This document shows positions 10,656 to 32,500 of a stretch of DNA of 48,070 bases, in pieces. The notes beneath the pieces were generated by a model. That model was not told where the DNA came from. It searched no databases and saw nothing but the letters and a program-made list of their open reading frames with translations. The position numbers were made by a program, and so were the translations under genes. Position 1 is the first letter of the stretch. Every line of letters begins with the position of its first letter. Origin of the DNA: a virus (taxonomy: Duplodnaviria; Caudoviricetes); IMG/VR virus record IMGVR_UViG_3300030372_004397, positions 1 through 48,070 of that record. The stretch is one strand, 5' to 3'.

Positions 10656-13600
10656 TTAATAATTATAGTATTTAAACTTAGTTTTCTTTTTCTTTTTATT
10701 TTTTAATTCTTTTTCTAACATCTTTTTTCTTTTTATTTCGTCTTTAATAGCATCAATTTTCTTAACACCTATACCATCAATACCAAGGTTCCAAGTACTC
10801 CAACCTAAACCAAACGATACTCTTTGCCAAGCCTCGTGTTCTGCGTTTAAAGCCTCTCTAATATTATCAACCTTGTTATGTAGTCTTGCTAAAGGAATAT
10901 TTGTTGTAGCTTCTACCGTATTACCTACAGCATCCCAAATAGGGTTATCAATATCAAGTATAGACATTTCTTTCATAACATCTTGATCCCACACGTAAGT
11001 TCTTTTAGCTTGTACCAACTTTCTAGCTTTAATACCTATTGGTGGAGACACCTGTAAAGCTTCTAGCAACTCAGCATATTCATCTTGTTTCCATTTAGGT
11101 TTTTCTTGTTCTTCACGGAATTTACGTACTACATTTTTTAAAGTAGCTACAACCGCTCCACCTATACCCATACCTCTTAATATAGTATCTATACTACCAT
11201 TAATTACACGGTCTTTTTTCTTTTTAAAGAACTCGTCATCTTTATCATCATCATCTCCAAACGCTATAGCAAATAATGCTGATTGTAAAGCCCCAAATAT
11301 TAAGTTTTGAACAGCAACATAGTATATTATTTTAGATATATTAGTTTTAATATCACCTCTACGGTTAACTAAATCTAAAGCAGCTTTTTTAGTCAACCTC
11401 ATATACTGCATAGGTGTATTTTGAAAAGCTAATATCAACCTACCAAGTGGTGAGGCTTGTTGTTGTGATATTTTATCTGGTCTTGCCGATTGTTGTGTTT
11501 CTTCTGCGATTTCAGCAAAGTCATCAAAAGCTTTTTGTTCAGCTTCAGCCTTAGTATAACCTTGTTTTATATAACTATTAAGTCTATTTCTATAAAAGGT
11601 AGCTCCACCCATAGCTATAGCAAAACTATCAGCAATTTGCGTAGGTAAAAACCCTTTACTTAACAACCAACTTATAGCAGCTTTAAAAGGCTCTTTTGAC
11701 TTACTAACATAACCAGCTAACTCAGCAGCGTTAATATCTGTTTTTAAACCAGATCTTCTTTGCTTTAACATATTAGAGTTAAATATCATTGAAAAATCTG
11801 CCCAAAATTGTTTTTGGTTAGCAAAAGCTTTAGCAGCTTTAAAAAAGTTGTTATCACTCCAGTTAATAAAGTTAACCATAGATATGGTTTGTAGCACAGC
11901 GGATCTTGCATTAACAAACATGGTAGCACCTATAGATCCGTTTATCCAGTTCATAAAGCCATTTACAAGTCTATTTTTACCAAAGTTTCTATTTGTACCG
12001 TTTATAGTTCTATATAATATATCTTCTAAAGCTTCTCTAAAATTACTACCGTATATAGCTTCTATTTTATTTAAATTTTCTTTTGAAAATATAATTTCAG
12101 CGTTGTCTATAAATTCTTGAAAAAACTTTTTTCTACCTATTTTGTTTGTAGCCGCGTCTAAATCATTTCTAATATCTTCAACTAACCAGTTTTCTCCTGG
12201 AGGTACGTAACCTTCTTTTTGTTTAGAAATAACACTTAACGTTTCAGCAAAGTTACGTAGTTCAGGATCTTTTTTAACTAAATCAGATAAATTCTTTTGA
12301 TCTGTTTTAGATAAACCAGGTATATCAAAATTAAATTTATCCCATAAATAAACTCTAACAGCGTCACTATACGTAAAGTCACCATCAGGTGTTTTTTTAT
12401 TTAATTTTTTACGAACATCAGAATAATTTTTCTTCAAAGCGTTATAGTCACTAGCAACACTTTGTCTAGCGTCGTTTAACTCTCTATAAGCTCTATTTAA
12501 CGGATTTATTAAAGCTTTCTTAAAAAACTCCATATGTTTTTCACCTTGTTTACCTTTGCCTAAAAAATAATATAATAAACCATTAAAGTCATCTGCAGAA
12601 GGAGGTATGAATATATTAAACCTACCTTTTTTAGCGCCACGTTTAGCAGCTTTAGCAGCAGAAAATCTTTTCTTAGCATCTACACCTTTTGTTTCTTCTA
12701 ATATTTTATTAAATTCAACGTTTATTCCTTTACTAAATTTAACTTTAGCTTGTTGAACTTTTGATTTGACATCAAATTGATCTAGCATGTTTTTTACAGC
12801 TTGTACGTTTTGTAAAGCATCATCAGCAAAGTAAAAGTCGTTATAACCCTCAGCGACTTTATCAGCTATCCACAAGGCTTTAGCCTCAGCTGTAGAATTA
12901 CCTAAACCGGTTATATTTTTTAAAGGTATATTTAAACCATTAGCTTTTAGAAAATCAAATATAGCTTTCTGAGCAGCTGATGGTCTAGCTGTTAATACAA
13001 ACATATTCTTCGGGCCAAACTTATCTTGTAGTTTCATTGCCTTGTTAAACAGTGGTGCTAACTTGCCTTTTACAACTTTATTAAAATCTGAAAAATCAAA
13101 TGTATATCCTTGATCTAATAAATCTTCATATGTACTAGCGTATTGCTCAGCATTTAAAGTACCTGTTGTTCCGTCTGGAGCAGTAAACTTAACTAAAGAT
13201 TTAGTTGTAGCTAATGTGTCATCAAAGTCTAAAACCGTAATACCTCTAGATTGTTTTAACTGTGGTCTTATTGATTCAACAAATTCTTTACCTTTTTGTT
13301 TTTGAGCTTGAAATTTATCAAATGCAGATCTAGAATTTACAACAGCGTCACTTATTATTTTACTTTGTTTTGTATTTGATAACATTTGATTATAAGCTTT
13401 TATTTTAGCTTTAAAAAAAGATGTGTTAAGTATACTGCTTATAGAGTTTGAACTATCAAAACTAAAATTAGTTTTAGATTTTATGCTGTTAATTTTAAAT
13501 TGTGGCTCTGTGTCTACTCTTAATCTATAACCTATTTTAACTTTTTTACCGTTTATTTTTTTTGTAACTCTAACAGGATTTAACCTTGCTATTAAAATAA

Positions 13601-16600
13601 ACTCTCCTTCTAAAGGACTCATACCTAGTTCCGCCATTTCAAAAACATCTTGCCCCATTATAAAACCTCCAATACCGCCAGCTTGTATATAATGAACGCC
13701 TTTGATATTATAGTTGTTTGAAATAAAATCACCACCTACTTTAATACTATAATCGTTTGTTAAAGCTTTTAATCCTAACGCTTTAAATTTATCATATTGA
13801 TTTAGGTTTAACACAGTGTCGCTATCTACTAAATCAACCCCTATTTCTTTTTTTATTTTTTTTCTTATAGCTTTTACTTTATCCACAACTTTTTTAAGCG
13901 CTTCTTTTATTTTTTTCTCATGTTTTTTGTCTAGTTTTTCTTCTCTAATAATTTCACCTGTTTTAAAATTAGCATAAGAAGCCCCGTTGTGCGACGCTCT
14001 AGCATTTCCAGCTTTATATTCAATAGGTATATGCGTTTCTAAAGGAGTGTCTTTAAACAAAACTATTGTTACGTCTGGATTAGGTACTATTATTTTTTTA
14101 CCTTCAGAGTTTAAAATTTCTACATTACTCTCTTTAACATCTTCATATAAAACAGTTACAAACGGAAGTTTTTCAGACTGTACAATTACGTTCTTTATAC
14201 CACTTTCTTCGTAATTTTTAGAAAATTTACCATGCCCTACAGTATGGAGTTTTTTACCTATTTTAAATTTTAATTCTTTTGGATTAACCAAACCGTCTTC
14301 ATAACCCTCTATAATATGATCTACAACTACTTGATCAATTTCACGGCCCATTATATTTATTTTAGCTTTTCTTTTTTCAACGTCAATTACATCATAAAAG
14401 TTTTCATTATTTTCTATTGCGTCAACAAGATAATTAACTTGTAATATTAAATTAGGACCAGTTAACTCTGTACCAAGAGACATTTTTACTTTAGGATCAA
14501 CATCTAAAATGTTAGCTAATCTTTCTGTATCGTTTTCAAACAACTGCTGACCTTGTAACTTAGATATAGCTCTCATTCTATCTCTTACATCTTGTTCGCT
14601 TTGTACCTCCATAGTAGCAGCGTAAGCTAGTTTAGAAACAACACGTTCAGCTAGTTTATCTTTTCTAGTACCTCTCAAACCACTCTTCTTACCTGTTTTA
14701 GGGTTTATTGCTGGAGGATTAAAAAACCTCATATAGGCTGTTTCACCATTTTTATCTTCAACCATGCTGAGTTTTAGCTTTGTAATAAGATTAGGTCCAG
14801 AGTTTCTATTTACTGTTTTAGGTAATAAACCTTTTTCAACTAATTTATCTACCTCTGTAGGTTTTGTTATTCTTCTTTTAGTAGCAAATATTTTTACTTT
14901 TTGTAATCTTTCTATTTGTATTAAATCTTCTTTAGTTAATACATTGCTATTAAAAATTACTGGAAAATATTTTTTTACAAAATTATTATAATTTTTTTCT
15001 ACATCAAAATATTCTTGTAAAAGATTTTTAAATTCTAGTTCATATGCTTTTTGTAACGCTAGCTTGTATTTTCTATTGTTTTCAATAGAAGGTAGTTTAG
15101 TGCCTAAAGTTTTTCTTACACCTTCTTTTATTTTTTCTTTAAAATCTTCGTAAGAATCTCCTTTTGAAACAACAATTTTTTCTATTATTTTAGAAACTTC
15201 AGCGGTGTAATCTTCATAACTCATTTCTTCTTGTTGAATCATTTGTTCTTCTGGACTCAACTCTTGAGTGTCTTCTATATCAAAACCAACATCACCTTCT
15301 TTTGTAGGTTTTTTAGCGTCAATACTTACAGTGGGTTCTTTAGTAGCTAATTCTTTTCTAGCAACTAATTTAGCAAATCTAGTGTTAGCAAATATATATT
15401 CACCAAAACCTTTTCTACCAACAATAGTACCATCAGCTCTTTTAGCTTCAGGATTAAAACCATCACCGACGAGACCTATAATTCTATCTGTTACTTCTTG
15501 TAAAATTAAATCAAATTCTTCTTTACTTACAGCTCTAGATTTTACGTAATTACTAATAGCACCATTATCTTCTAAAGCATTGAAAAGAACTTTATTACGA
15601 TTAGGATCAGCTATAAAAGTATCATAATCATCTTTTGTTTTAATATTAATAGGTAAAAGATTATTGATAGCCTCGAGTGGAGACACACCTTTAGCTTCTT
15701 TAATTTCTTTTTGTTCTTCTTCTGGTGGTAACTGAGCTTTAGCTCCAGGCTGTTGAGTTTTTTTAACAAAAGAATCTATATATCTTAAAACATCTTGCGT
15801 TGAGTTTATTTGTAATAGAGTATAGTTTTCACCATCTTTTAAAGCTCTTATTTTGTTTAAAAAAGATTTAAAAGAATATAATATAGAATTTTTTGGGCTT
15901 TTAAAAACACCCATACCTCTAAGAGTACCTAATAAAGTTAATAATTCAGCTGTATCTATACCTTTTTTATTAGTTAAACTTAAGTTTTGAATATCCACGT
16001 ATTGGTTTATTCTTCCCATAACTTGTTTAAGTAGTTTTGGATTATCTTTAAGCTCTTGTTCTAAATACTTAATTGTTTCTAAAACAAATTTTTCATGTGA
16101 CGCAACTACTTTTCCATCTTTTACTAACCCGCTTTTTATATCGTAACGATGTTGGTATTCGTGAACAGCAACTCTTATAGCATCAGCTTTAACCACTTCG
16201 TTATCTGTTAAAAGACCTAATCTAACATTGTTAGAAAAAACTAAAAGATCGTTACCAACATAAGTTCCAAAACCACCTATTTTTAACATATTTTGTTGAG
16301 CAGCTGGACCAACCCCACCTGTTGAAACCGTTTTATAGTTATCTAAAATTTGTTTTTTCTCTTTTTCTGTAATAATTCTATCATTAACCTTTTTAACTAA
16401 ATACTCGTCAAGCTCTTGTAAAGCATTATCACCGTCAAAAGCAACAACATTATTACCCATACCTTTCATTAAATTATTAAAGTACATGTGTTGACCTAAA
16501 GCATTTGCATGAGACATGGCCTTGCTTTCTTCTATATTTAATTTTTTACCATCTTCTCTAAGCTTTTGTTCGGCTTTTGATACTGGACTTTTTAGTAAAG

Positions 16601-19130
16601 TCTCTTTTTCAGATTGTAAATCATTATACTGTTTATTTAAAGAGTTTCTTAGTTTTTTTGAAGAATCAGTTTCCTTATCACTAACAGCACCTAACGCCAT
16701 CATTCTTTTATATAATATTCTTTGTCTTCTAACTAAATCAAAAACTTTTTTTGTGTCTTGCTCGTTTAAATCACCAAGTTTATTAAGTACTTTTATATCA
16801 AGTATACTTAATCCATTTTGTATTTCTTTTTGCCTCTTTTTTAATATTTTAGCTTCTTTTTTACTTATACCTATTTCATTGTCTAATAATATAGATTGAT
16901 TTTCTGTCCACTCTTTTAACAAACCTTCCATTTCCACTCTTTCTTCTCTTGTCATAACAGCGCTTCTATACGTGTTACGTATATTTTGAGCTATGCTAGG
17001 ACCACCTATAGCTAAAGTTGTTGCAGCAACGTTAGCTATAAAGTTACCATCAATACCTTCTGTTAAGTCTTTATCCTCGCCTAATACCTCATTGTCTATA
17101 AAATTATGACCCATTAAAGTAAAACTTTCTTCAGCGATTTCAGTTACTGGGCCTTTAACAACAAAATTACCTACGCCTCTTACTAACGATCCTATCGTAA
17201 CAGGACCATACAGTTTAGAAATTTTATTTAAATCATCAAGCCAAGCTAGAGTACCAAGCCGCTCCGCGTAATTAGCTATTAAACCATATGTTGAAGCAGA
17301 AAACAGTCTTTGCCATTGGGTAAAGTTTAAGGCTGACTCTTGATTATCTATTTCTTCATTTATTTTTAAAAGAATATCTGGCGTTATATTAGGATTATTT
17401 TTTTGTCCTTCTAAAAATGATATCATTTCACTAGCGTTTTTTTGCTGTATTTCCATATAAGAAAGTTTTTCACCTCCTTCTACGTTTAAATAAGTCGCAC
17501 CTATTACTTTTCTAGCTTTCTTTTTTCCAATAGCTTTAGCCCAACCAAGATAACTAAGACTTGTTGCTATGGTAAAAGCGTTGTCTCTAAAGTTGTCACT
17601 TAAAAACCTACTAAAATCTTTAAGATCTCCAACTTCATCAAACTTTATAGCCATAGGAACCGTTGTTTCCATTTTTTTATTTAAAGACTCTGTATAGTTT
17701 ATGTGATTGTTGTATTTTTTAATCATAAAGTCTGTAGCTTTAGCATCGTCACCAGCTATAAGCTGAACTGTTTTTGTGCTAAGCCCCATTATAGCGGTAC
17801 CACCTGCGCCAAAAATAGATTTTTCTAAAGCTAATGATACGCCATAACCCCAGTCGTAATTCATATTTAAAGCTTTTAAAGCAGAAACTTTATCATTTAA
17901 TTTTATAGCGTGGTTTTGTAACTTTTTAATACGACCAGCTATTTCATTATTTGATTTTAAAACATCTCTTCTAATCTCTACATCTATATTTTGGTTTTGT
18001 AAAAAAGCGTCTAAGTCTTCAACATTTTTTATACCATAATCAGTATCAAGACTTTTATTAAAACTATCTAAATCTTTAACTAAATTATCTTGAACAGCTT
18101 GCATATATTCACTTTGTGCTTTTATAGCTTGTTCAGTTACATCTTTTCTTTGTTCGTATGGGTTTAGTAAAAATTTATCAGGATTCATTAATACGTTTTC
18201 ATAATACGTGTTTGAAGTTAAAAACTCAGCAGCGTCTTCGTATTTTTTATAATCTGTAGAAAAATCAGTTGTATAAAAACTATCTTCTTCGTCAATATCT
18301 AAAAGCTCGTCTATAGTTTTTAACACTTCTCTTGCCCCTTTTGGATTATTTGGATCGTGATCTCTAACGTATTCCTGTGTTAATCTATTTTGTTCAATTC
18401 TACGGTTTTTTTCTAAAACCTCTTTAAACCCACCAGGTATAATTTCATTATTACTATCGTATTGCAAGTCGTAAGGAATATCTTCTAATTTTAAATCTCC
18501 AGTTTCTAAATATTTTTTATAAAGTTGGTATTTTTTGTTACCAAAGTGGTTTATTAAATCTTCTTCTAAGGTATTTTTATAAAGCACTTCGTCTTTCCCT
18601 TGTTTAGATTCTAATTTTTCGAAACTAGGTATTGCTCCTACTTGTGCTGGATCCTCACCTTGCACAGTTATAACGCTTGACATGCCCTGCGTTGGTCTAT
18701 CCACACCAGTGAAAGTAACAGGCGCGTTAAGAGGATCAATAGCAACTGGTCTATAAAAACTAGATAAATCAAAATATTCACCAATTACGGTGTTTTTAAA
18801 TTTAGAATTATTTTTCCAAGTAACAGACTTATCTATGTTTATTAAGTTTTTAGCAAAGTCTTGTGCGTTTTCAGATTTTTTTATAATTAAATCACCGTCT
18901 TGAGAAACAAAATCTCCAGGTGTAAAAACAAAATCTTTTTTAAATTGAGTTAAATCTGAAGAGTAAATTTTCTCTTTATTTGCAATAATATCATGCACTG
19001 TTGCTTGGTAATCAGGATTTTGCATTTTATTGCTAAAATCTTGAAAACTAGGAACTACTGTAAAATATTTATCTTTATACTCTAAATTTGGATCTGTTAA
19101 AGTTTCAAATAATTTATTTATATCTGCCAT
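10656..19130 (-). CDS. Giant ejected cargo / polyvalent protein with zincin, sigma70-like, PD-(D/E)xK and HAD modules
   Basis: 2824 aa, last of three genes at the podovirus internal-virion-protein position. HEYQH at about aa 990, sigma2-like block, PD...IEYK, DFDDT/LTAR/FADD. Helical C-terminus (AEETQQS.RP...LILAFQNTPMQY). Confidence 0.75.
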   Translation of the reverse strand: MADINKLFETLTDPNLEYKDKYFTVVPSFQDFSNKMQNPDYQATVHDIIANKEKIYSSDLTQFKKDFVFTPGDFVSQDGDLIIKKSENAQDFAKNLINIDKSVTWKNNSKFKNTVIGEYFDLSSFYRPVAIDPLNAPVTFTGVDRPTQGMSSVITVQGEDPAQVGAIPSFEKLESKQGKDEVLYKNTLEEDLINHFGNKKYQLYKKYLETGDLKLEDIPYDLQYDSNNEIIPGGFKEVLEKNRRIEQNRLTQEYVRDHDPNNPKGAREVLKTIDELLDIDEEDSFYTTDFSTDYKKYEDAAEFLTSNTYYENVLMNPDKFLLNPYEQRKDVTEQAIKAQSEYMQAVQDNLVKDLDSFNKSLDTDYGIKNVEDLDAFLQNQNIDVEIRRDVLKSNNEIAGRIKKLQNHAIKLNDKVSALKALNMNYDWGYGVSLALEKSIFGAGGTAIMGLSTKTVQLIAGDDAKATDFMIKKYNNHINYTESLNKKMETTVPMAIKFDEVGDLKDFSRFLSDNFRDNAFTIATSLSYLGWAKAIGKKKARKVIGATYLNVEGGEKLSYMEIQQKNASEMISFLEGQKNNPNITPDILLKINEEIDNQESALNFTQWQRLFSASTYGLIANYAERLGTLAWLDDLNKISKLYGPVTIGSLVRGVGNFVVKGPVTEIAEESFTLMGHNFIDNEVLGEDKDLTEGIDGNFIANVAATTLAIGGPSIAQNIRNTYRSAVMTREERVEMEGLLKEWTENQSILLDNEIGISKKEAKILKKRQKEIQNGLSILDIKVLNKLGDLNEQDTKKVFDLVRRQRILYKRMMALGAVSDKETDSSKKLRNSLNKQYNDLQSEKETLLKSPVSKAEQKLREDGKKLNIEESKAMSHANALGQHMYFNNLMKGMGNNVVAFDGDNALQELDEYLVKKVNDRIITEKEKKQILDNYKTVSTGGVGPAAQQNMLKIGGFGTYVGNDLLVFSNNVRLGLLTDNEVVKADAIRVAVHEYQHRYDIKSGLVKDGKVVASHEKFVLETIKYLEQELKDNPKLLKQVMGRINQYVDIQNLSLTNKKGIDTAELLTLLGTLRGMGVFKSPKNSILYSFKSFLNKIRALKDGENYTLLQINSTQDVLRYIDSFVKKTQQPGAKAQLPPEEEQKEIKEAKGVSPLEAINNLLPINIKTKDDYDTFIADPNRNKVLFNALEDNGAISNYVKSRAVSKEEFDLILQEVTDRIIGLVGDGFNPEAKRADGTIVGRKGFGEYIFANTRFAKLVARKELATKEPTVSIDAKKPTKEGDVGFDIEDTQELSPEEQMIQQEEMSYEDYTAEVSKIIEKIVVSKGDSYEDFKEKIKEGVRKTLGTKLPSIENNRKYKLALQKAYELEFKNLLQEYFDVEKNYNNFVKKYFPVIFNSNVLTKEDLIQIERLQKVKIFATKRRITKPTEVDKLVEKGLLPKTVNRNSGPNLITKLKLSMVEDKNGETAYMRFFNPPAINPKTGKKSGLRGTRKDKLAERVVSKLAYAATMEVQSEQDVRDRMRAISKLQGQQLFENDTERLANILDVDPKVKMSLGTELTGPNLILQVNYLVDAIENNENFYDVIDVEKRKAKINIMGREIDQVVVDHIIEGYEDGLVNPKELKFKIGKKLHTVGHGKFSKNYEESGIKNVIVQSEKLPFVTVLYEDVKESNVEILNSEGKKIIVPNPDVTIVLFKDTPLETHIPIEYKAGNARASHNGASYANFKTGEIIREEKLDKKHEKKIKEALKKVVDKVKAIRKKIKKEIGVDLVDSDTVLNLNQYDKFKALGLKALTNDYSIKVGGDFISNNYNIKGVHYIQAGGIGGFIMGQDVFEMAELGMSPLEGEFILIARLNPVRVTKKINGKKVKIGYRLRVDTEPQFKINSIKSKTNFSFDSSNSISSILNTSFFKAKIKAYNQMLSNTKQSKIISDAVVNSRSAFDKFQAQKQKGKEFVESIRPQLKQSRGITVLDFDDTLATTKSLVKFTAPDGTTGTLNAEQYASTYEDLLDQGYTFDFSDFNKVVKGKLAPLFNKAMKLQDKFGPKNMFVLTARPSAAQKAIFDFLKANGLNIPLKNITGLGNSTAEAKALWIADKVAEGYNDFYFADDALQNVQAVKNMLDQFDVKSKVQQAKVKFSKGINVEFNKILEETKGVDAKKRFSAAKAAKRGAKKGRFNIFIPPSADDFNGLLYYFLGKGKQGEKHMEFFKKALINPLNRAYRELNDARQSVASDYNALKKNYSDVRKKLNKKTPDGDFTYSDAVRVYLWDKFNFDIPGLSKTDQKNLSDLVKKDPELRNFAETLSVISKQKEGYVPPGENWLVEDIRNDLDAATNKIGRKKFFQEFIDNAEIIFSKENLNKIEAIYGSNFREALEDILYRTINGTNRNFGKNRLVNGFMNWINGSIGATMFVNARSAVLQTISMVNFINWSDNNFFKAAKAFANQKQFWADFSMIFNSNMLKQRRSGLKTDINAAELAGYVSKSKEPFKAAISWLLSKGFLPTQIADSFAIAMGGATFYRNRLNSYIKQGYTKAEAEQKAFDDFAEIAEETQQSARPDKISQQQASPLGRLILAFQNTPMQYMRLTKKAALDLVNRRGDIKTNISKIIYYVAVQNLIFGALQSALFAIAFGDDDDKDDEFFKKKKDRVINGSIDTILRGMGIGGAVVATLKNVVRKFREEQEKPKWKQDEYAELLEALQVSPPIGIKARKLVQAKRTYVWDQDVMKEMSILDIDNPIWDAVGNTVEATTNIPLARLHNKVDNIREALNAEHEAWQRVSFGLGWSTWNLGIDGIGVKKIDAIKDEIKRKKMLEKELKNKKKKKTKFKYYNY

Positions 19131-19134
19131 TTAA

Positions 19135-20760
19135 TTAATCTAAAAGTTTTTTAATTTTAAACCCTTTATAAATCGGATCATCTTGTTTTATTCCTAAAAC
19201 AGCTTTAGCTTCTTCATATTTTTCAAGTGGAACAGGCCCAATTCCTGCGACTATATTATTAGCTTCTTGTATAGTCATTTTAGAAGCGCTAGATGTACTT
19301 GCTTTGTAACCAACTGTTTCATCAAAACTAAGATTAAGTCTTAAATCATTTTTAGTTGTATTAACAAATGCTCCTTTATCTGTATCAAACACTTGGTATT
19401 GTCCGTTTTGTTTTCTCCACTTTAAACCGTTCCAAGCTATTTGCGCAGGTATTGTGTTAGGATTTTGATTTAATAATTTTACGTCTTTATCTACTTTGTT
19501 CTTTGGCACATATTGTCCACTTATATAATACGTATTACTTGTCTTTTCTTCACTTCCGCCACTACCTTTTTTCGGAAATTTATCATAATTGTCTTTTGCT
19601 TCATTTTTTAAGAAAGCAACTAAACCTTCAGGACTTTTGCTTAAAGCATATATGTAATTTTTAAAACCTTCTTCACCTTCAAAATCAGCAGGTGTTACTC
19701 CATCTTTACCATCAATATCTCTAGCGTAATTCAATAAAGTGTTTGCTACCTTAGGATTTGATTCTAAAAAAGCTTTAGCAGTGGTTTCGTTTAAACCTTG
19801 TAAATGTTCCCAATAAGTTTCATCAGCTATATCAAACAAGTGTGTTGCTAAGTCTTCTTGATCATTACTAGTTAAACCTTGACCTTCTTTTGTTTTAGCA
19901 TTTTTTAAACGATTAACAAGAGCTGTTTCATCAAAAAAACCTGTTTTAACACCTTCTTTAATAGCATCGTTAATTTCTCCATTATACACTGACCTTAATT
20001 GGCTCTCTACTATCAAGTTTTTAGAAAAATCTTTTACATCAACAGCAAAAGGCGCTAAATCGTTATCTTCACTAGTATATTGTAATTTACCTTCATTATC
20101 AATACCACTTATTACTTTATTACCTTTTTCTAATCTAAATTTTATTTCTCCCTTTTCATTAGCAAACGGCATTAATTGCACACCAACAAACTCATCAGTA
20201 ACTCCATCTTCTTTTGTTAAAGGCCCATAGTTTTCGTTTTGTGCAGCACGAGCAAAAAGCATTGTCATATTTTTTTTACTAGAGTTTTCAGGATCAAAAT
20301 CTTTATACATTGCAGGGCTTAAATTAAAAGCGCTAAAATCTATACCTAAAGAGCCTGCTCTTAATTGATTAGCACTGTTAACAATATTATCTAATTGAGT
20401 TTTACCTAAATCTTTAGTTTCTTTGTTTAAACGTTTATTCTTGCCATCTTCTTTTATTTCATTAATTCTTTGTATTAATGTGGCATCAACATCAGGCATA
20501 CCCATTGTTTGAGTATTTAAAGTTTTTATTCTATCTACCGCTTTGTTTATTAATGGTGTTGCTAACATACCAGCTACCTGACCTATTTGAGCACCTACTT
20601 GGCCAATACTAGCCATTTGTTGGCTATAGCCTTGTGCTATCATACCAAAAGCTTTACTAAGGTTTTGTGGTACAGCGGCCATACCCATTCTAGTCGCAGC
20701 TTGTACTATACTTGGATCCGCCTTACCCGCTAAATTTAATCCTCCTGTTTTTTTTGCCAT
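19135..20760 (-). CDS. Internal virion (ejected) protein
   Basis: 541 aa with a Gly/Ala/Gln/Met-rich N-terminus. Lies between the pilot-like gene and the giant cargo gene. Confidence 0.55.
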   Translation of the reverse strand: MAKKTGGLNLAGKADPSIVQAATRMGMAAVPQNLSKAFGMIAQGYSQQMASIGQVGAQIGQVAGMLATPLINKAVDRIKTLNTQTMGMPDVDATLIQRINEIKEDGKNKRLNKETKDLGKTQLDNIVNSANQLRAGSLGIDFSAFNLSPAMYKDFDPENSSKKNMTMLFARAAQNENYGPLTKEDGVTDEFVGVQLMPFANEKGEIKFRLEKGNKVISGIDNEGKLQYTSEDNDLAPFAVDVKDFSKNLIVESQLRSVYNGEINDAIKEGVKTGFFDETALVNRLKNAKTKEGQGLTSNDQEDLATHLFDIADETYWEHLQGLNETTAKAFLESNPKVANTLLNYARDIDGKDGVTPADFEGEEGFKNYIYALSKSPEGLVAFLKNEAKDNYDKFPKKGSGGSEEKTSNTYYISGQYVPKNKVDKDVKLLNQNPNTIPAQIAWNGLKWRKQNGQYQVFDTDKGAFVNTTKNDLRLNLSFDETVGYKASTSSASKMTIQEANNIVAGIGPVPLEKYEEAKAVLGIKQDDPIYKGFKIKKLLD

Positions 20761-20782
20761 ACTTTTGTTTATTTAAAAATTT

Positions 20783-21457
20783 TTAAGATACTAGTTCTGT
20801 AAGAAAACCACCTGCACCGGCACCACCTGTAGCGATACCACCAGCGATACCACCTATTATTTGACCATACATACCCATTCTAGCTGATTGCATTTGTGAC
20901 ATAGCACCAAATCCTGCCATTTGATTTCCATAAGCAGCTTGTACGCCAGCTTCAGCACCAGCCGCTTGACCATACTCAGAAGCAAGTAAAGTAGATGTTC
21001 TACCAAACTCTGCACTTTGAACAGCAGCCTCACCTTGACGCCTAAGCGTGTCAGCTTGTTGAGCGCCTTGCCTAGCCATTATTTGCGCTCTTCGTTCTTG
21101 TCTACCTATATCAACGCTAACTTGCCTAGCTTGCATAGTAGCTTGATTAGCTAAAGCTTGTGCTAAACCACCTATACCACTAGCGCCAGCAGCACCTCTT
21201 AAACTAGATAATATATTAGCTCTTTGTTGAGCAGCTTGTTCCATTTGAAACTCTGCAGCTTGAGTGTCAACTTGTATGTCTTCATAGAAGTTTTCTACAT
21301 CAGCATAAGGGTTTTGAAAGGTAAATTCTTTATATTCTTTTTTTTGTTGATCAAGAGTTTCTCGTTGAACATTTAATTTTTCCTGCTGCTCCTGCATTTG
21401 TGTTTCAGTAGCCTGCATCATTTGTCGTTCTAAACGTCTTTGTCTTTTTTTTCCCAT
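20783..21457 (-). CDS. DNA pilot / ejection protein
   Basis: Gln/Ala-rich coiled coil with Gly-rich hydrophobic segments (IIGGIAGGIATGGAGAGG). Analogous in position and composition to T7 gp14 / P22 gp7. Confidence 0.65.
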   Translation of the reverse strand: MGKKRQRRLERQMMQATETQMQEQQEKLNVQRETLDQQKKEYKEFTFQNPYADVENFYEDIQVDTQAAEFQMEQAAQQRANILSSLRGAAGASGIGGLAQALANQATMQARQVSVDIGRQERRAQIMARQGAQQADTLRRQGEAAVQSAEFGRTSTLLASEYGQAAGAEAGVQAAYGNQMAGFGAMSQMQSARMGMYGQIIGGIAGGIATGGAGAGGFLTELVS

Positions 21458-21870: not shown

Positions 21871-21923
21871 AATTTAATTTAATTTAACTTGTTCTGTATT
21901 AATATAGTTACAGTTTTTAGCGT

Positions 21924-23549: not shown

Positions 23550-26500
23550 TTAATAAGTTCCGCCTCCACCTGAGCCGTTACCACCATTACCACCATTACC
23601 ACCGTTTGTTGTTGTTGTTGGTGGCGGTGGGCTTAAAGGCGCGGCTGTTGGTGGTAAGCCCGAAGGTCCTGTTATTGGTGTTGCAGTAGTACTTACAATA
23701 CTATATACTGTTCCTATACCTTGAAAGCTAAACTCTGATGTTGATATTGGAGCGTTTAAATCACCATTTATATAGTTAAACCATTTACCTTCTTTTTCTA
23801 TAAACTCTTGTATATTACCACTCTGTTTGTCTGTTCTTATATTATCAACATACCAACCAGTTTTATTAGAAATATTATAAGGTTTTATATTACTCAAACC
23901 AGTATCGCTGTCTACTTCAAATTGATTTATTCTTGATTGAGTTCCTTCATAATTTAAAGTGTTAAATGTTTTAACAACAGATGGTTCTTGATTTAATACA
24001 GCGGTTAAAGAAGACTCTATGTAAGTGTTATAAAAACGATTTCGTTCTTGGCCTTCAACATGGTGCTCATGTAAATTACCGTTATTAATAGTATAATATT
24101 TTTTAGTTAAACTTAAACCTTGTTCTGGTATGTAAGACTTAAAACTAACCCAACCCCTAACGTCTTCATTGTAACTTAAGGTTGTTGGTGATAATCTATC
24201 TGGATTATCATCAGGGTTAGCCTGTAAGTGTCTTGGTAATAACTCAAATTGAGTTAACATTCTTATATTATCTATACTACCACTAACTATTCCGCTTTCA
24301 ACATAAATAACTAAAGTGTTTACTAGCTCATCACTTACTATATCATCGTCTCCTATTGTGTGTAATCTACTGTAATACCCAGAGCCATTTAAACCAGAGG
24401 CTGGATAAGAATAAAATCTAAATCCTTTTCCAGCAGAATTAAAATAATAACCTTGAATTCTACCACCTGTAATATTATTAAACTCAAACTCAATTAAAAA
24501 ATTATCTCCAATAGAAGCTGTTGTCGATATAGCTTGTGTAAGTTGTATTCTATCTTCGATAGTAGGTATTAAAACTCCAGGTGTGTGCATAGGAGCGTTA
24601 TTAAAAGTTATAACTGGATTTGAAGGATCTGTATCGTCAAAAAATATAAAGTCATCATCAGTTATATCAAAACCTTGAAAACTCCAAGAGTTAGCACTAC
24701 CACCAGTAAAATAACTAGTTATGTCTTTTAAATATATATTATCTATAGCACCAACAAAAGCTTGTGATGGTGAACTAAGAGAACCAAATCTAACTTGAGC
24801 TTCATTTTCGTTTGTACTCAAGCTTATGTTAGGCAACACTGAAGATATAGTACCTACTGTACTTAATCCGTTTATAGTATTGTAAGGCTCGTAATCAACG
24901 CTACCTGGTTGTTTTATTAGTATTTCATAAGGATTACCAGTTTGCGTGCTAGAAATATTACCTATTATTTTGTAGTCACCAATATGTTGTATATTATTAA
25001 AAGCAAAACCATCAAAACTACCACTATTAATCTTACCAGCTACATAACCATAAAAACCTCCTTCTATATCTGCTCTTGGTGTACCAAATTTATTTAGCCC
25101 TGGGTTTACGCTAAATGACAACTCCCAACCATCATCGCTTTGTGTAGGAGCGTCTTGTGTTCCTGTGTATGGCGAGGTAATAGTCGCGTGGTTGTTAAAG
25201 TGGTAATGCCAAGTTGCGTTATCACCTGGATTTTCTTGATTATTAGACGCGTCATAATTAACTTGATAAGCATAAGAATCAAAATTTAAACCGCCATAAT
25301 TAGCGTAAGCAGCATCTTTTAAATAATAAACTTTAGGATCTTGTAAACCTTGTCTAAAGCCAAGCATTTTAACACCGCCGTCATTAGTTCCTCTCCACGC
25401 GTCATTAGTTATCCAAGGTGCAGAAGAACTTATGGTTGGTAATAAATTAAGACCTACTACGGTTGAAACGTTTCCATACTCATCACTATTATTATATGTT
25501 TGTGTTGGGTTTTGTATTTTTGTAATTGTTATTTTTTGCACGTCAATATGTACATTAGAAAAAACTATATCAAAATATGGAAGTATACCAGCGTTGTTTT
25601 CACATACAGTACTATTAGCATGTAGCTGAAATATCGCTCTATAACTACCTTGATTATGCCAACTACCATAAGTTCTTGTATCAATGTTGTTTCTATCTAC
25701 ACCGTCAGCTAAAGCCCAAACACCACCTGCTTCAGTAGAACCTTTTATATTTGGCTTATAAGTTTCTAGCTGTATAGACATTTCTGGAGTGAAAGTGCTT
25801 AAGTATGTAATACCGGTATTTAATATTCTACCTACATGACCAACTGGATATTGTTCTATAATAGTACCACCGGTACCCCAATCTAAAGTATTTAAATAAT
25901 TGCCTGAAACATTACCGTTGTTTAAATTGTTATTACAAACGCCTTTAACATATATTTTACCTGTAGCAGCTTGGCTCCAAGTTCCGTTAACTACCGGATC
26001 TAAACCATCTTCGTCTTCCCAAACATCCACGCAGTACCAAGCACCTTTTTCTAGCGATGTTTGAGCGCCAGTGTTATCTACAGGCGCAAATCTAAGCGTA
26101 ACATCATCGTTTATAGCATTAATATTAACTGTTTCGTCTATACCTATTTGATGTATAAAATCATCTCCTTGGTTAAAATAAACATCATCAGTATCATCAT
26201 CAATATTATCATAAGAAGCAATTTCAACATTAAAAACATGATTAGGATCTGCTGCTGGAGAATAAATGTAGTTTGGAAGCGAATAAGTGTTTCTATAACT
26301 AGTAACCCCGTTGTCAGCACCTTCATACCATTTAAGTCCACCAGGCGTAACAGTGTATACTCCAGTTGATATATCTAGAACTGTTTGATCTTCTACACGT
26401 TCTGTAGGAGGATTTGAAAGACCATAATAGCCTTCAGATTCTGTCATAGTTAAATAACTTGTAAGCGACGTAGTAGGGCTTTGCCAATAAGCAGGTAATT

Positions 26501-29500
26501 CAGGTATAATAACCTCTGTCCAAGTATCCACGTCGTTTTCTGGGAAACCCGGTACGTCAAGTTGAGCAACAACAGCAGGTGTACCTACGTTTTCTAATCT
26601 ATACTGTTTTTTTAATTCAAGCTGAGTTACAATCATAGAACCTATACGGTGTCGAGGGTCTGTTACCTCAACTTCTCCTTGACCAGAACCTAAATTAACA
26701 GTATACCTAGGATGTATCGTAATCTGTAAATCTTGTACGGCTATAGCACTCACTTCATCACCATTAGGGTGTTTAAATTTAAACGCTCTAGTATAATACG
26801 CAAAACCATAGTAATTTTCACCTGAAATTTCTGTCGGGGTAGTTAATGTTGGTCCATCTGAGTAGGTTAAACTTGGAAAAGGATTAAAATCAAAATGGCT
26901 TGTAGAATCTGTAGTCTGCATATCGGTAGCTGACATAAGTATATCAGAACTAATAACGCTTGAACCGTCAGCAGCAGGTGTACCGTCATGTAATTTTATT
27001 ATAAAACCTTTTTGAACACCAGAACCCGGTCTATTTGGATCTGGCACCTGAAAAGCTCCTGTGTTAATCGATGGACCGTGTACGGCGTCTTCAGGCCCTT
27101 GGGCATTTCCACCATAACCTGGCTGTAGTGTACCCCACTTTGGCACAAGCCATTCTATTTTTAAATAAACAACTTCACCATTAAACACGGTGGTTGGTTT
27201 CATAGGCGCATTATTAAGACCAATATTAAATAAACCTGTTGCACCCGAGGTTAATAAGTCAGCGGTATAATCTAAAATATAAGTACCAGTAAAAAAGTTA
27301 TTTGATATAGTTGTTAAATCGTTTGGAAAATCTTTTGGAAAAGTAATATAATCGTCGTGAGATAAATAATCAGTAGGTGACAAAGCTATGTTTTGATTAT
27401 AAGGTGGATAGCTGTAAAAAACTATGCCGGGGGTCGCTCCATACTCTTCAGCATCATCAATACCACCACCACCAGAAGGTGACACACCTAAACCAGCCAT
27501 GCTTGATTGGCCAACGTGAAAAATATTTCTATTAAAAAGCGTTGTAGCTTGAGCTGCATCTATACCATTATTTGGTACTCCAGAACCACTTGGCGTGTCT
27601 ATAATATCAAAACCATTAAATGTTCTACTGTGCTTATGTGGAGGATTGCCAGTAACGTTGTTAAAACCGTTAGTACCACCACCATGAACAGCCATATACC
27701 TATTAGTGTTGTTATTCCAACCACCAGTTGTAAATTTAGTATAACTTTCAGAACTAGAGGGGCTATAAACGGTACCTGCTACTACAGGCGCTTGAAAAGT
27801 GTATTGGCCAATAAAAGGATATTCCCTTATAACTACATGCGATAGTAAATTAGGATTCATGTAGTTTGAAACAAATTGGTCAGAAGAGTTAACCCAAGGT
27901 TGGTAACCATCGCCTGGTAAATTAAACCTCATAGTAGATTCATCAAAAATAGTTCCTGTAGGATTACTAGAATAATTAACATCAGGAACAATAGTTTCTA
28001 ATAGTGTAGTGCCTTGTGATATATCAGCGTTTGTTATTAAGTTTGTAGCTATAGCGTCTTTTAAAGTTACATTATAATTTCTTTTATATGCATCGTAGCT
28101 ACCTATAATATTGTCGGCATATCTTAAGTTATCTCTAAACCAATCGTGCATACCAGCCTCTGATATAGGAGTTAATCCATCTTTTGATAACCTTAATATA
28201 GCGCCTCTTTGTCTATCAGCAAAATAAGCTCTATAAGATTCTTTAGCAAAAGATTCTGGGTTTTGCGATATACCATAATCACCCACAAAAGGAATAGTTT
28301 GACCTAGCACATTTATATTAGCTGTTAACTGCGGGTTACCATCAGCATTAAACACAGCGTCTTTATTAGCTAATATTTTTACAACTCTATCTTCACAAAA
28401 TGTTATTAAGTCTGTTTGTCTACTAAACAGTTTTTGAATACTACCATAAGTAGGATTTATATCTTTTGTTATTTTTTCAGCCATTACAAACTGATTTAAC
28501 TCGTTTAAACTAGAGTTAGAGTTATATAAACCTGAAAATATTAAACCGTGTTTTCTGTGATCTCTTTCGTAAGGCTCTTCTGTAGTTGTAGACGCTCTAG
28601 CTCCATTTGTAATCCTCATTTCATTAAAGTCATCTCTAATTCTATCAGACTCTACTCCATCACCAAATGAAAAACAATTATACCAACTTAAACCAGCCTC
28701 CATATTTTGAGTTGATTCTAATATGCTAAAAGAGTTTATTACATTGCTAGTACTACCACCATAATCTATATTTTCCTCCGGCGAGTTTATTTGAGCAGTT
28801 GTATAACTACCATCAACCCTATAAAATCTTATATATTTATTAGTATAATCTATTTCATTACCTTGATTATCAAATCTATTAAAACCAGCGTCTCCAACTC
28901 TATTAGTAAAAAATACTTGTAACGGGTTGGTGTCACTCCAGTTATTTAATATTATGTCTTCAGTAATATAACTAATACTAGTTCTAGCTAAACCAAATAA
29001 TGTTCCATCAGCATTTACTATTTCAACTTTACAACCTATGGGTGCAAATATTTCATTATTATCTGCGTTTATTCTACTAGGAACAGCTCCAGAAGCTTCG
29101 TAATAAACATCTAAACCAGAGTCGCTTTTTGGTTCTGTTTCAAATATAGTTGGTATTGAAGAAATTTCGCCTAAAAGATTATACGAACCTGAAGTTACAA
29201 TTTGTATTTCTGAAGCAATATTAGCTGTTAAACCGTTTGCCGCATCGCAAGGATTAAAACTAGGAGATACAGCTGCATCTGTGGGGTCCTTATCAAGTTC
29301 TAATATAAACACTAATCTTCTATTACTCGCTTTACCAAACTGCTGTATACGCGTTTTCAGGTGACCCGCTTTCAAAGCTTCATCGGCTGTCCCTATGTGT
29401 TTTGCCCAATTAATAGCGTTTTTTTCAACACTAAAAATATTTATAAAATTTGTTGCTTGAGCGTTGTTTGTTCCCCAATCATATTTTTTTCTCCAAGAAG

Positions 29501-32500
29501 TATGGTTATATAAACGTTTTACAGTGCAAGCGTTGACAGTATAAACAATACCTTGTGGGTCAGCACTAAATCTAAATTGAGTACCAGGAACTTTTAACAT
29601 GTCTGCAAAACGAGCATTGGCTTGTGATTCAGTTGTACTAGGAAAATCTATATCCCATTGTTTTTCGTGTAGCTCTTGATATGCTAAGTCGTAACCTTGA
29701 CCTACACCAGGACCTGGCGCAATTGGCTCTGTATAAAAATCGCTATCAGCTCTATCATCACCAGAACTCTGAACGTAATTACCTTCCATTTCTACAACAA
29801 AATTATCTGAACCTTGTGTTAGGTCTACGTCGTTTAATAAAGTGTTATTACCAAGATAAGAATCAGGCACAAAAACACCACCACCCCAAATACCTTGTAA
29901 TTTTTTAGCTAAACTATTATAACCAGTGGCTTTAACACCTGTTAAATCTAAAGGATCTGGAACTAAATCTTTACCTGGACCTAAAAATGATAAATGCATA
30001 AAAACCTTATTACCGGTTGTACCATATACGTCGCTAGGGAAACTATTGCTAGTAGTAATATCACCTTCTTGCCTCCATCTTCTACGACCTATTGCAGGGT
30101 CACTACTTGTGTGTACGTCGTCTGTTACAACAATACCCTCCATACAGTTTGGAGTACCACCAATACTATAAGTATTACCGTGCGGGGTTGACCAAAAAGA
30201 ATCAATAGCGCCTGGAGTTACAGAAAACATAGGTGACCAGTTTGTGCTTTGTAAAAGCGCTACATCAATAGGGTCTTGAGGTATAGCTAACCAACCGTTG
30301 ATATTTGGTTGTTGATCTCCAACCAATGTATTTTCATAATGCCAACCAAGACTAGAATCTTTAGCGTAAGGTTTCCATCTTGAAGTTGCTTTTTCTCTAG
30401 TTAAATAATAAGGTGAAAAAGTATCTTCGCCATCATTACCATCAAACTCGTTGCTATATCGTTCTTCGTAATCGTCCCAAGCACCATCATGACTATTTAT
30501 ATTTAATCCACTAGTCCAAACTCTAACTATATGCTCCCAACGAGTATTGTTTCCTTGCCAAACAGTTTGACTATTATCGTCTAACTGAGCACTAAGTACT
30601 CTAGGCCAATAGTTTTTCTTTAAATTATCTTCCCAATATAATGGATCTTCAACAGCGTAATAATCAGAGCTATTACTTAATATTTTTGTAGGTGGCATTT
30701 TTTGATCTGCGTCTATAGTATTACTCCATGTTATTTGGCCATAAGTCCATCTAGCGCCAGCAAGAACTTCTCCAGAGTTTTTAGCATAAGAATTACTAGG
30801 GTCATTTTGACCTGCACGGAAAAGCAAATTATCAATAAAAAATCTATTGCCATTAAGTGTAGCGTGGTCCAAAAGATAACCCCAATGAACATAATTATTT
30901 ACAGAATTAGTAGTATTTGCAATTTCAATTGCAAGATTATCGCTTCCTGAAGCTGGTAAAGTGTGTGTGAGGGTAGTATCTTGTAACTTAGAATTAGTTG
31001 TTAAAGGATCGTCAGCAAACCAGTAACTACTTGCTTGTTCTTCTACAGTATAAGTTACTAAAGACTCGGTACCAGGTTGTTGTTGTAGTTCATCAGACTT
31101 AGAATCACTTACTATTTTAACAAAAAATCTACCAGAAAACTGGTCCATGTCTTTTAAATCTTTTCTTTCTATAGTAACGGTAAGGTTAAAATTTAATCTT
31201 GGATGCGAGCCGGTATCTGTAGCGTGTTTAGCTATATCGGCATCAGTAGCGTTAACTTGAGTTTCTAGTTTAATTACATAAAGAGCGTCTGACATGTTCG
31301 GTAAGCCAAAAGCAGAAGAATCAGATTCTACCATTATACTAGCTATTCTATATCTTCTAGATTTATAAACATTATTGTTTTCTGTTTTAAACCAAGAAAT
31401 ATATAAGTCTTTTATCTCATTATGCCTTGTGTCAGTTGATATCAAAGAAGCGCCGCCGTTATCAAGATCTTCAAAATTTTGTTTATCTAAAACTATAGTA
31501 TCACAACCTGTTATATCAAACCTTAAAGGTTTTTGTGAATTGGCTGATTTGTAAGCTGTATATAAACCTTTTGGAACTAAACTAGCATCGTATGTTAAAC
31601 TAGTACCAATAGGGTTACCATCTAATACCCCATCATAACTACCTGTAGTTTCGTTGTCGTGTTGTCCTAATATTTTATATTTAAATTTTATAGCGTCAGG
31701 AGCCTCGTTAACTATACCTAATATTTTAAATCTATTTTCTGTACTAAATTGAGTAGCAGAGTCTAGTTTTTTCTTTATTATTAAGTAATCTTCTTCGTTT
31801 ATTTTGTTTCTATCAGACGAATTAAAAGATATCCATAAGTGTTCTCTTTCTTCTTTATCAACGTCTTCTGTAGGCGTATAAGCCTTATCCATTACTAAAT
31901 TATAATATTCGCTAGAAGTTTGTTTTATATAGAACTTATAATAATCAGCCCAAGTTGGTATATTTGAAGATACATAAGCTTTTAGTTGGTGAGATTGACT
32001 AGCTGATTTTACACTACCAGATTCCCAAGGTATTTTAACAGCAGATTCTGTTGAAGAAAATACAGGTGTTTCTCTACCATATTTATCACCAAAAACTATA
32101 CCTAACTGATAGTTTCTTTGTGACTTTATTGATTTTAATACGTTAGCTGGAAAAGTATAGAACTCTTGACTTAAGCTTGGTATATAATTTAATCTATTAC
32201 CGTAATCAACATATATTTCTGGCTTATCACTTATATCGTAGTTTTGAATATAGTTTCCGTAAACTAATCTACTACCCGTTATTTCTTGAGCTAAAGCACT
32301 TCTAGGTACATTGTCATAAATTCTTAATAATTGATTTTCTGGAACAGCCGCATAAATGTTTTCTGAAGTTACTGAATATTTACCACTGTATTTTGAATAA
32401 TTAGAAGTAGTGGGTTCACCTTGTCTGTAACCATAATCATTCCAATAATTAGAGTCTTTTTTTATACTAGTTATAGAGTATACAACAGGTGAGTTTTCTT

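Follow-up and report, generated by a model that had tools for sequence, protein, structure and literature searches.

Phages are known to start transcription of an incoming genome through the host holoenzyme, through an injected polymerase or through injected modifying enzymes. We report here on a 48,070-nucleotide (nt) tailed-phage sequence, IMG/VR record IMGVR_UViG_3300030372_004397 (an 86%-complete virus contig, the whole of which we call the window), in which a late protein of 2824 amino acids (aa) carries an embedded, very diverged sigma70-family domain 2. Compared with known Sigma70 domains 2 (PF04542; FliA, SigB, RpoE-type extracytoplasmic function (ECF) sigmas, T4 gp55), it has the same fold, the F-x-P loop, the region 2.3 aromatics and a candidate 3.2-like linker, but it is buried in a protein of a family of 2000-4000 aa, no region 3.0-3.1 or 4 is detected and the Q-E pair of region 2.2 is not kept.

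Phage sigma factors themselves are well described. The excerpted part of PMC8948821 reports that phiEco32 gp36 and 7-11 gp47 serve middle and late genes while early genes use host sigma70, and an excerpt of PMC7824862 describes stand-alone sigmas of group-2 jumbo phages. As far as these excerpts go, the likeness lies in a phage sigma that redirects the host core enzyme, and gp36 is also without region 4; those proteins, however, are small and made during infection, whereas the window lineage has a stand-alone gene as well as the embedded domain. In crassviruses, cargo proteins and a virion RNA polymerase are described for crAss001 (gp45-gp50; PMC10172136, in part), with which the window shares a related muzzle protein (PF25729) and, among the cargo genes of the virion operon, a giant one; in contrast, its lineage has no conserved polymerase motif (200 proteins, 20 genomes) and has a sigma domain instead. 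Polyvalent proteins, as presented in the main text of PMC5512222, are likewise large and multidomain, with an HExxH motif and variable enzyme domains, and are proposed to jump-start transcription. The solutions given there are an N4-like polymerase and modifying enzymes, and the word 'sigma' does not occur in that main text, although the supplements could list such a domain. Lastly, dCas12f-sigmaE of Flagellimonas (10.1101/2025.06.10.658880, in excerpt) is a flavobacterial sigma whose −35 reading has been taken over by another DNA anchor, and 9n9q is among our structural hits. That system is RNA-guided, cellular and two-part, whereas the candidate anchor in the window protein is a fused domain.

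Results

A sigma domain 2 within the giant protein

The AF2 model of the domain has a predicted local distance difference test (pLDDT) value of 94.9. When the domain-only model was compared with 48,161 chains by VIA, ranks 1-26 were all sigma domain-2 chains, as were ranks 1-29 for a two-domain model; superpositions covered 64-95 residues at a root-mean-square deviation of 2.3-4.6 A, and the hits include the PhyR-like sigma mimic 3t0y and 9n9q. The initial annotation had read a sigma70 region 2 and 3.2-like segment from the letters and named prediction of a sigma2 fold as a check, and this is the fold obtained. Its quoted peptides all lie in the giant open reading frame (ORF), namely EEFDLILQEV at aa 1204-1213, IIGLV at 1217-1221, GFNPE at 1224-1228, KGFGEY... 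at 1240-1259 and VSID...SPEEQM at 1268-1297 (nt 15521-15240 together). The domain begins about 22 residues ahead of the range it proposed (aa ~1149, nt 15686, minus strand).

Profile comparisons agree with the fold. The family profile scored 25.8 against an ECF profile, with 40 column shuffles reaching at most 17.6, and direct hhalign of family and ECF gave E 0.003; among 27 segments along the giant protein, the two overlapping the domain scored 29.5 and 22.1 and the other 25 no more than 17.8. The profile of a sister clade, A8, matched FliA at E 1.3e-4, then SigE, WhiG, FliA and RpoS at E 0.04-0.6, and A8 is tied to the window's clade (A6) by hhalign (85.5%) and by a hidden Markov model (HMM) match in 7 of 34 loci. 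Because A8 both matches FliA and links to the window's clade, homology to sigma70 region 2 is supported together with the domain-2 fold. Weak NCBIfam sigma matches were seen in 6/37 sister-clade domains, and in the ESM Atlas the domain of relative L079 gave 0.96, with 23 of 30 hits in Sigma70_r2 clusters.

The divergence is nevertheless large. The embedded domain scores below the Pfam and NCBIfam cut-offs and under every HMM cut-off; when the region was searched as a single sequence, Pfam, PHROG and PDB gave no match, and the profile of the window's clade had 0 hits in the PDB. Foldseek gave no PDB match at E<=0.001 and, against BFVD, sigma entries at ranks 3, 6 and 28 only (E 0.27-2.1). A group-1 sigma profile was discarded, its score with the window's clade (18.9) not exceeding that of an unrelated segment (19.3). 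The domain is present in 84 of 91 giant frames at loci chosen by C-terminal motifs, many of which also went into the profiles, and in all 110 proteins chosen by the region itself.

Conserved residues

Conservation in 99 aligned sequences is concentrated at F/Y1225 (99), P1227 (96), L/F1242 (93), F/W/Y1245 (81) and I1246 (81). In the alignment this core falls on the 2.2-2.3 loop and on the region 2.3 F-x-x-W/Y, positions that we take to form the pocket holding flipped −10 bases. Q1211 is variable and the 2.2 Q-E pair is not kept. The likeness to DLIQEG..GL from which the domain was first recognized thus picked out a real domain, but 'DLILQE..GL' is shifted by about one helical turn in the family register, and part of it, GLVGD, is a lineage-specific insertion (four of its five columns are gaps in 97 of the 99 relatives aligned, the fifth in 93); the match is partly coincidence.

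Linker and second domain

The acidic linker after the domain is predicted to be disordered (pLDDT <50 over most of aa 1268-1294), with D1271 kept in 108/121 and G1279 in 92/121 sequences. A region-3.2 matrix has its top hit in the entire 2824 aa at aa 1266, and 31 of 195 relatives (window included) have a hit immediately after the domain, against 4.7 expected, for a short acidic motif in related, not independent, sequences. The proposed 3.2-like linker is thus modestly supported. The second conserved domain occupies the position of sigma region 4, but its hhalign comparison with region 4, made without folding or fold-searching it alone, is non-significant (E 0.12-0.49), as is the match of its E-x-x-x-Q-x-E helix to region 4.2. 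The earlier remark that no clear region-4 helix-turn-helix (HTH) follows agrees with this (E 0.1-0.5). Regions 3.0-3.1 are also undetected in the giant protein.

A motif shared by early genes

Upstream regions of small early genes in the first five genomes share a three-box motif, TACAAA-nn-AAATACGA-N9-GATAATA. A loose pattern from these five was run on 20 relatives, at least 96% complete, and tightened after inspection; with the tightened version, 18 of the 20 have sites, 77 in all (0.0 in shuffles). The 15 genomes added later contribute 45, spread over 13 of them, and two sites in G039 fall in an apparently repeated contig end. Up to 13 copies occur per genome, before small early genes and the ligase, ssb-like and sigma genes. 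Nearly all sites (75/77) share the strand of the stand-alone sigma gene described below. In 15 genomes they lie no more than 10 kb upstream of it; in three more they are upstream when the contig end is crossed, so that 76 of 77 count as upstream if these three contigs are read as circles, and one is downstream. Genome G079 has the motif ahead of its first early gene and also ahead of the sigma gene, 39 nt from the start of the latter. The early arm is absent from the window, and hence so are the sites. Position and shape suggest that the motif is a promoter.

The motif was not found in any of 121 genomes from the probable host phylum and is unlike the host consensus TTTG/TANNTTTG given in the excerpt of PMC6847099. 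On the reverse strand the upstream boxes contain TAGTTTG, which misses the host −7 box by one base; TAnnTTTG occurs in 10/390 other upstream regions. No covariation of the motif with sigma-domain clade was seen.

As a genome-wide late promoter class, TGTAAYTAT was rejected (73 sites, 59.8 expected). Its position is conserved, with a copy 781-824 nt downstream of the sigma start in 14 of the 20 genomes (at 490 in a fifteenth, whose sigma frame is cut); it also occurs in the window at 21895-21912 (minus strand) and is possibly a middle or late promoter. A separate conserved element, TGACAATAG...GTAA.AGGCTA, is found in L388, L417, L438 and L452 in front of the ~210-aa gene that precedes the sigma gene. 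It is also seen where the early and late arms diverge, once with TGTCAC as inverted partner, and could be an operator or origin.

No detected phage polymerase, and a stand-alone sigma

PF00623 (Rpb1_2) was found in 0 of 21 records, with a positive control of 14/14, although a very diverged polymerase could escape; PF00940 was likewise 0/21, in a search where no positive control rang. A catalytic-aspartate polymerase motif occurred across the 20 genomes in a single 411-aa frame, and DFDID three times in 200 proteins, unconserved and not in the window. The earlier view of the sigma as an alternative to a virion RNA polymerase fits this lack of a detected phage polymerase in the 20 relatives.

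All 20 relatives encode a stand-alone sigma70 of ~250 aa that has regions 2 and 4; one copy is truncated where its contig stops. Examples are L402:3746-4495 and L388:6947-7705 (both minus strand), and 7 of 7 tested exceed the TIGR02937 cut-off. The adjoining gene encodes ~210 aa with a C-terminal segment read as HTH-like. Neither this sigma nor the phage-specific promoter-like motif figured in the initial annotation. Since the sister-clade profile matches one stand-alone sigma gene at E 6e-6, the embedded domain may stem from it. Viral ESM Atlas clusters of 119-142-aa Sigma70_r2-only proteins, noted together with L402:3746-4495, resemble the embedded domain by features and are possibly its free-standing relatives.

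Genomic context and other domains

The virion operon runs terminase (TerL), portal, capsid, two ring-type proteins and muzzle (PF25729), then genes for 136, 224, 541 and 2824 aa (PHROG and Pfam), in the gene order of Cellulophaga phage phi18:3, phi38:1 and elemoE. The last and largest phi18:3 gene in the same slot, gp123, is annotated from tandem mass spectrometry (MS/MS) proteomics, and the 224-aa protein matches elemoE gp20 and phi18:3 gp120 (E 4e-4), the latter also annotated from MS/MS. Gene order and the gp123 annotation make the 2824-aa protein a probable virion cargo protein, and the earlier proposal that it is injected would rest on the same two points; no sigma domain was detected in that phi18:3 protein, nor in the giants of phi38:1, elemoE and Manatee Spring phage. 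An N-terminal HMM link of the giant family to those of phi18:3, phi38:1 and elemoE is weak and may be compositional.

Table 1. Positions of the features discussed (window coordinates unless a locus is named).
Feature	Position	Strand	Basis
2824-aa multidomain protein	10656..19130	−	ORF; last gene of virion operon; putative cargo/ejection slot
Sigma70-family domain 2 (regions ~1.2-2.4)	15336..15686, aa ~1149-1265	−	AF2, VIA and profile link to FliA
GLVGD, lineage-specific 5-aa insertion	15462..15476, aa 1219-1223	−	Alignment gap
Acidic, disordered region-3.2-like linker	15240..15335, aa 1266-1297	−	pLDDT and matrix hit
Second conserved, mostly helical domain	14496..15239, aa ~1298-1545	−	pLDDT ~90-96
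HExxH motif (presumed zincin-like peptidase)	16149..16163, aa 990-994	−	Sequence motif
Presumed HAD-like phosphatase domain (DFDDT ... FADD)	12741..13253; motifs aa 1968-1973, 2101-2104	−	Motifs nearly invariant
Two upstream cargo-slot genes (224 aa, 541 aa)	19135..21457	−	Position before giant gene
Three-box motif array	L388:5582-16569 (G079), plus early arms of 17 other relatives		Upstream of early genes

The giant family forms 338 clusters at 50% identity, and tblastn of the protein against 50,697 phage records found no match. Terminase matches in 87 records are mostly to Flavobacterium (68) and Cellulophaga (15) phages, with Tenacibaculum (2), Maribacter (1) and an uncultured phage (1), so the host is probably a flavobacterium. 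The giant gene also occurs in 31 metagenome-assembled genome contigs (L293-L323) labelled Woesearchaeota, Aliivibrio, Maricaulis and Flavobacteriaceae, which are probably mis-binned phage contigs. The muzzle protein (23550-33347, minus strand) has 3265 aa, about twice its counterparts (1673 aa in G079), which implies a large insertion.

Besides the sigma domain, the giant protein has a region that we take to be a HAD-like phosphatase, with no Pfam match. Its variable middle holds a PD...EYK pattern (14013-14078, minus strand) that presumably resembles a PD-(D/E)xK nuclease; in relatives the same part holds other inserts, among them PF06414/PF13671 kinase-like domains and a DNA methylase (L307). 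The HExxH motif, with H990 nearly invariant, lies upstream of the sigma domain in 193 of 195 domain-bearing proteins at a median spacing of 164 aa. We assume that it marks a zincin-like peptidase, as labelled in PMC5512222; with several unrelated domains beside it, the architecture of a polyvalent protein is present.

Discussion

We propose, at roughly even odds (about 0.5), that the 2824-aa protein, likely a virion cargo protein, is injected and acts as a starter sigma for host RNA polymerase. The proposal builds on the fold and homology of the domain, its position across the family, the motif and its placement, and the absence of a detectable phage polymerase. The giant protein would be packaged into the particle and leave it together with the DNA, and the HExxH peptidase may free the sigma module, following a proposal in the main text of PMC5512222. 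Domain 2 would dock on the beta-prime clamp helices and open a GATAAT-type −10 box, the linker threading in as the 3.2 finger and the second domain replacing region 4 to read the upstream TACAAA and ATACGA boxes. This would start the early arm, stand-alone sigma included, which would then serve later genes. Since the motif is non-host and stands before the earliest genes as well as before the sigma gene of the phage itself, something present at entry must read it, and the embedded domain is the candidate. A later role for the stand-alone sigma fits what is excerpted for phiEco32 and 7-11. Two points weigh against the proposal: the motif stays constant, whereas mean identity is 28% for the embedded domain (99 sequences) and 56% for the stand-alone sigma (19 sequences); and a late promoter class could not be established in the 20 relatives.

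The leading alternative, itself unlikely, is that the autoregulated stand-alone sigma or a host ECF sigma reads the motif, the embedded domain being a reused sigma-derived fold that binds melted or single-stranded DNA at ejection, or a scaffold. In its favour, the motif is invariant across clades, the stand-alone sigma is conserved and complete and has a site just before its start in G079, and the reverse-strand TAGTTTG is close to the host −7 box. Against it, a sigma could not start itself if its own gene needs the motif, the motif was not found in the host-phylum genomes searched, and the phage sigmas of phiEco32 and 7-11, in the part of PMC8948821 cited, serve middle or late genes.

We also doubt, a little more strongly, that the injected domain is a decoy, which would bind the beta-prime clamp and so keep host sigma out but would not itself initiate; early promoters would depend at first on weak host activity and afterwards on the stand-alone sigma. 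PhyR-like mimics do exist, and the undetected region 4 and high divergence would suit such a role, but the best-kept residues are the DNA-side aromatics and not the 2.2 Q-E pair, the 3.2-like linker is kept, and a blocked core would stall a phage in which no polymerase is detected. It is very improbable that the sigma likeness reflects a common helical arrangement or that the protein is not in the virion. The low Z, the blank Foldseek search and a virion location drawn from gene order speak for this; the A8 link to FliA, the 26 top-ranked sigma chains and the weak NCBIfam hits count against mere helical likeness, and the MS/MS annotation of phi18:3 gp123 against absence from the virion.

Injection of a starter sigma thus remains our preferred account. 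More specifically, and tentatively, a little short of an even chance, we suggest that in this large lineage of marine crAss-related podoviruses a virion-delivered sigma replaces the virion RNA polymerase: domain 2, together with a new DNA-reading domain distinct from region 4, would be set free from a polyprotein, open the phage-specific three-box early promoter at entry and start a two-sigma cascade. No description of a virion-delivered sigma was found in the literature searched, which mostly left out subscription journals. If true, an injected sigma would be a further route by which phages start transcription and the second domain a new promoter-reading module, and the claim can be tested directly in vitro with the promoter-like motif.
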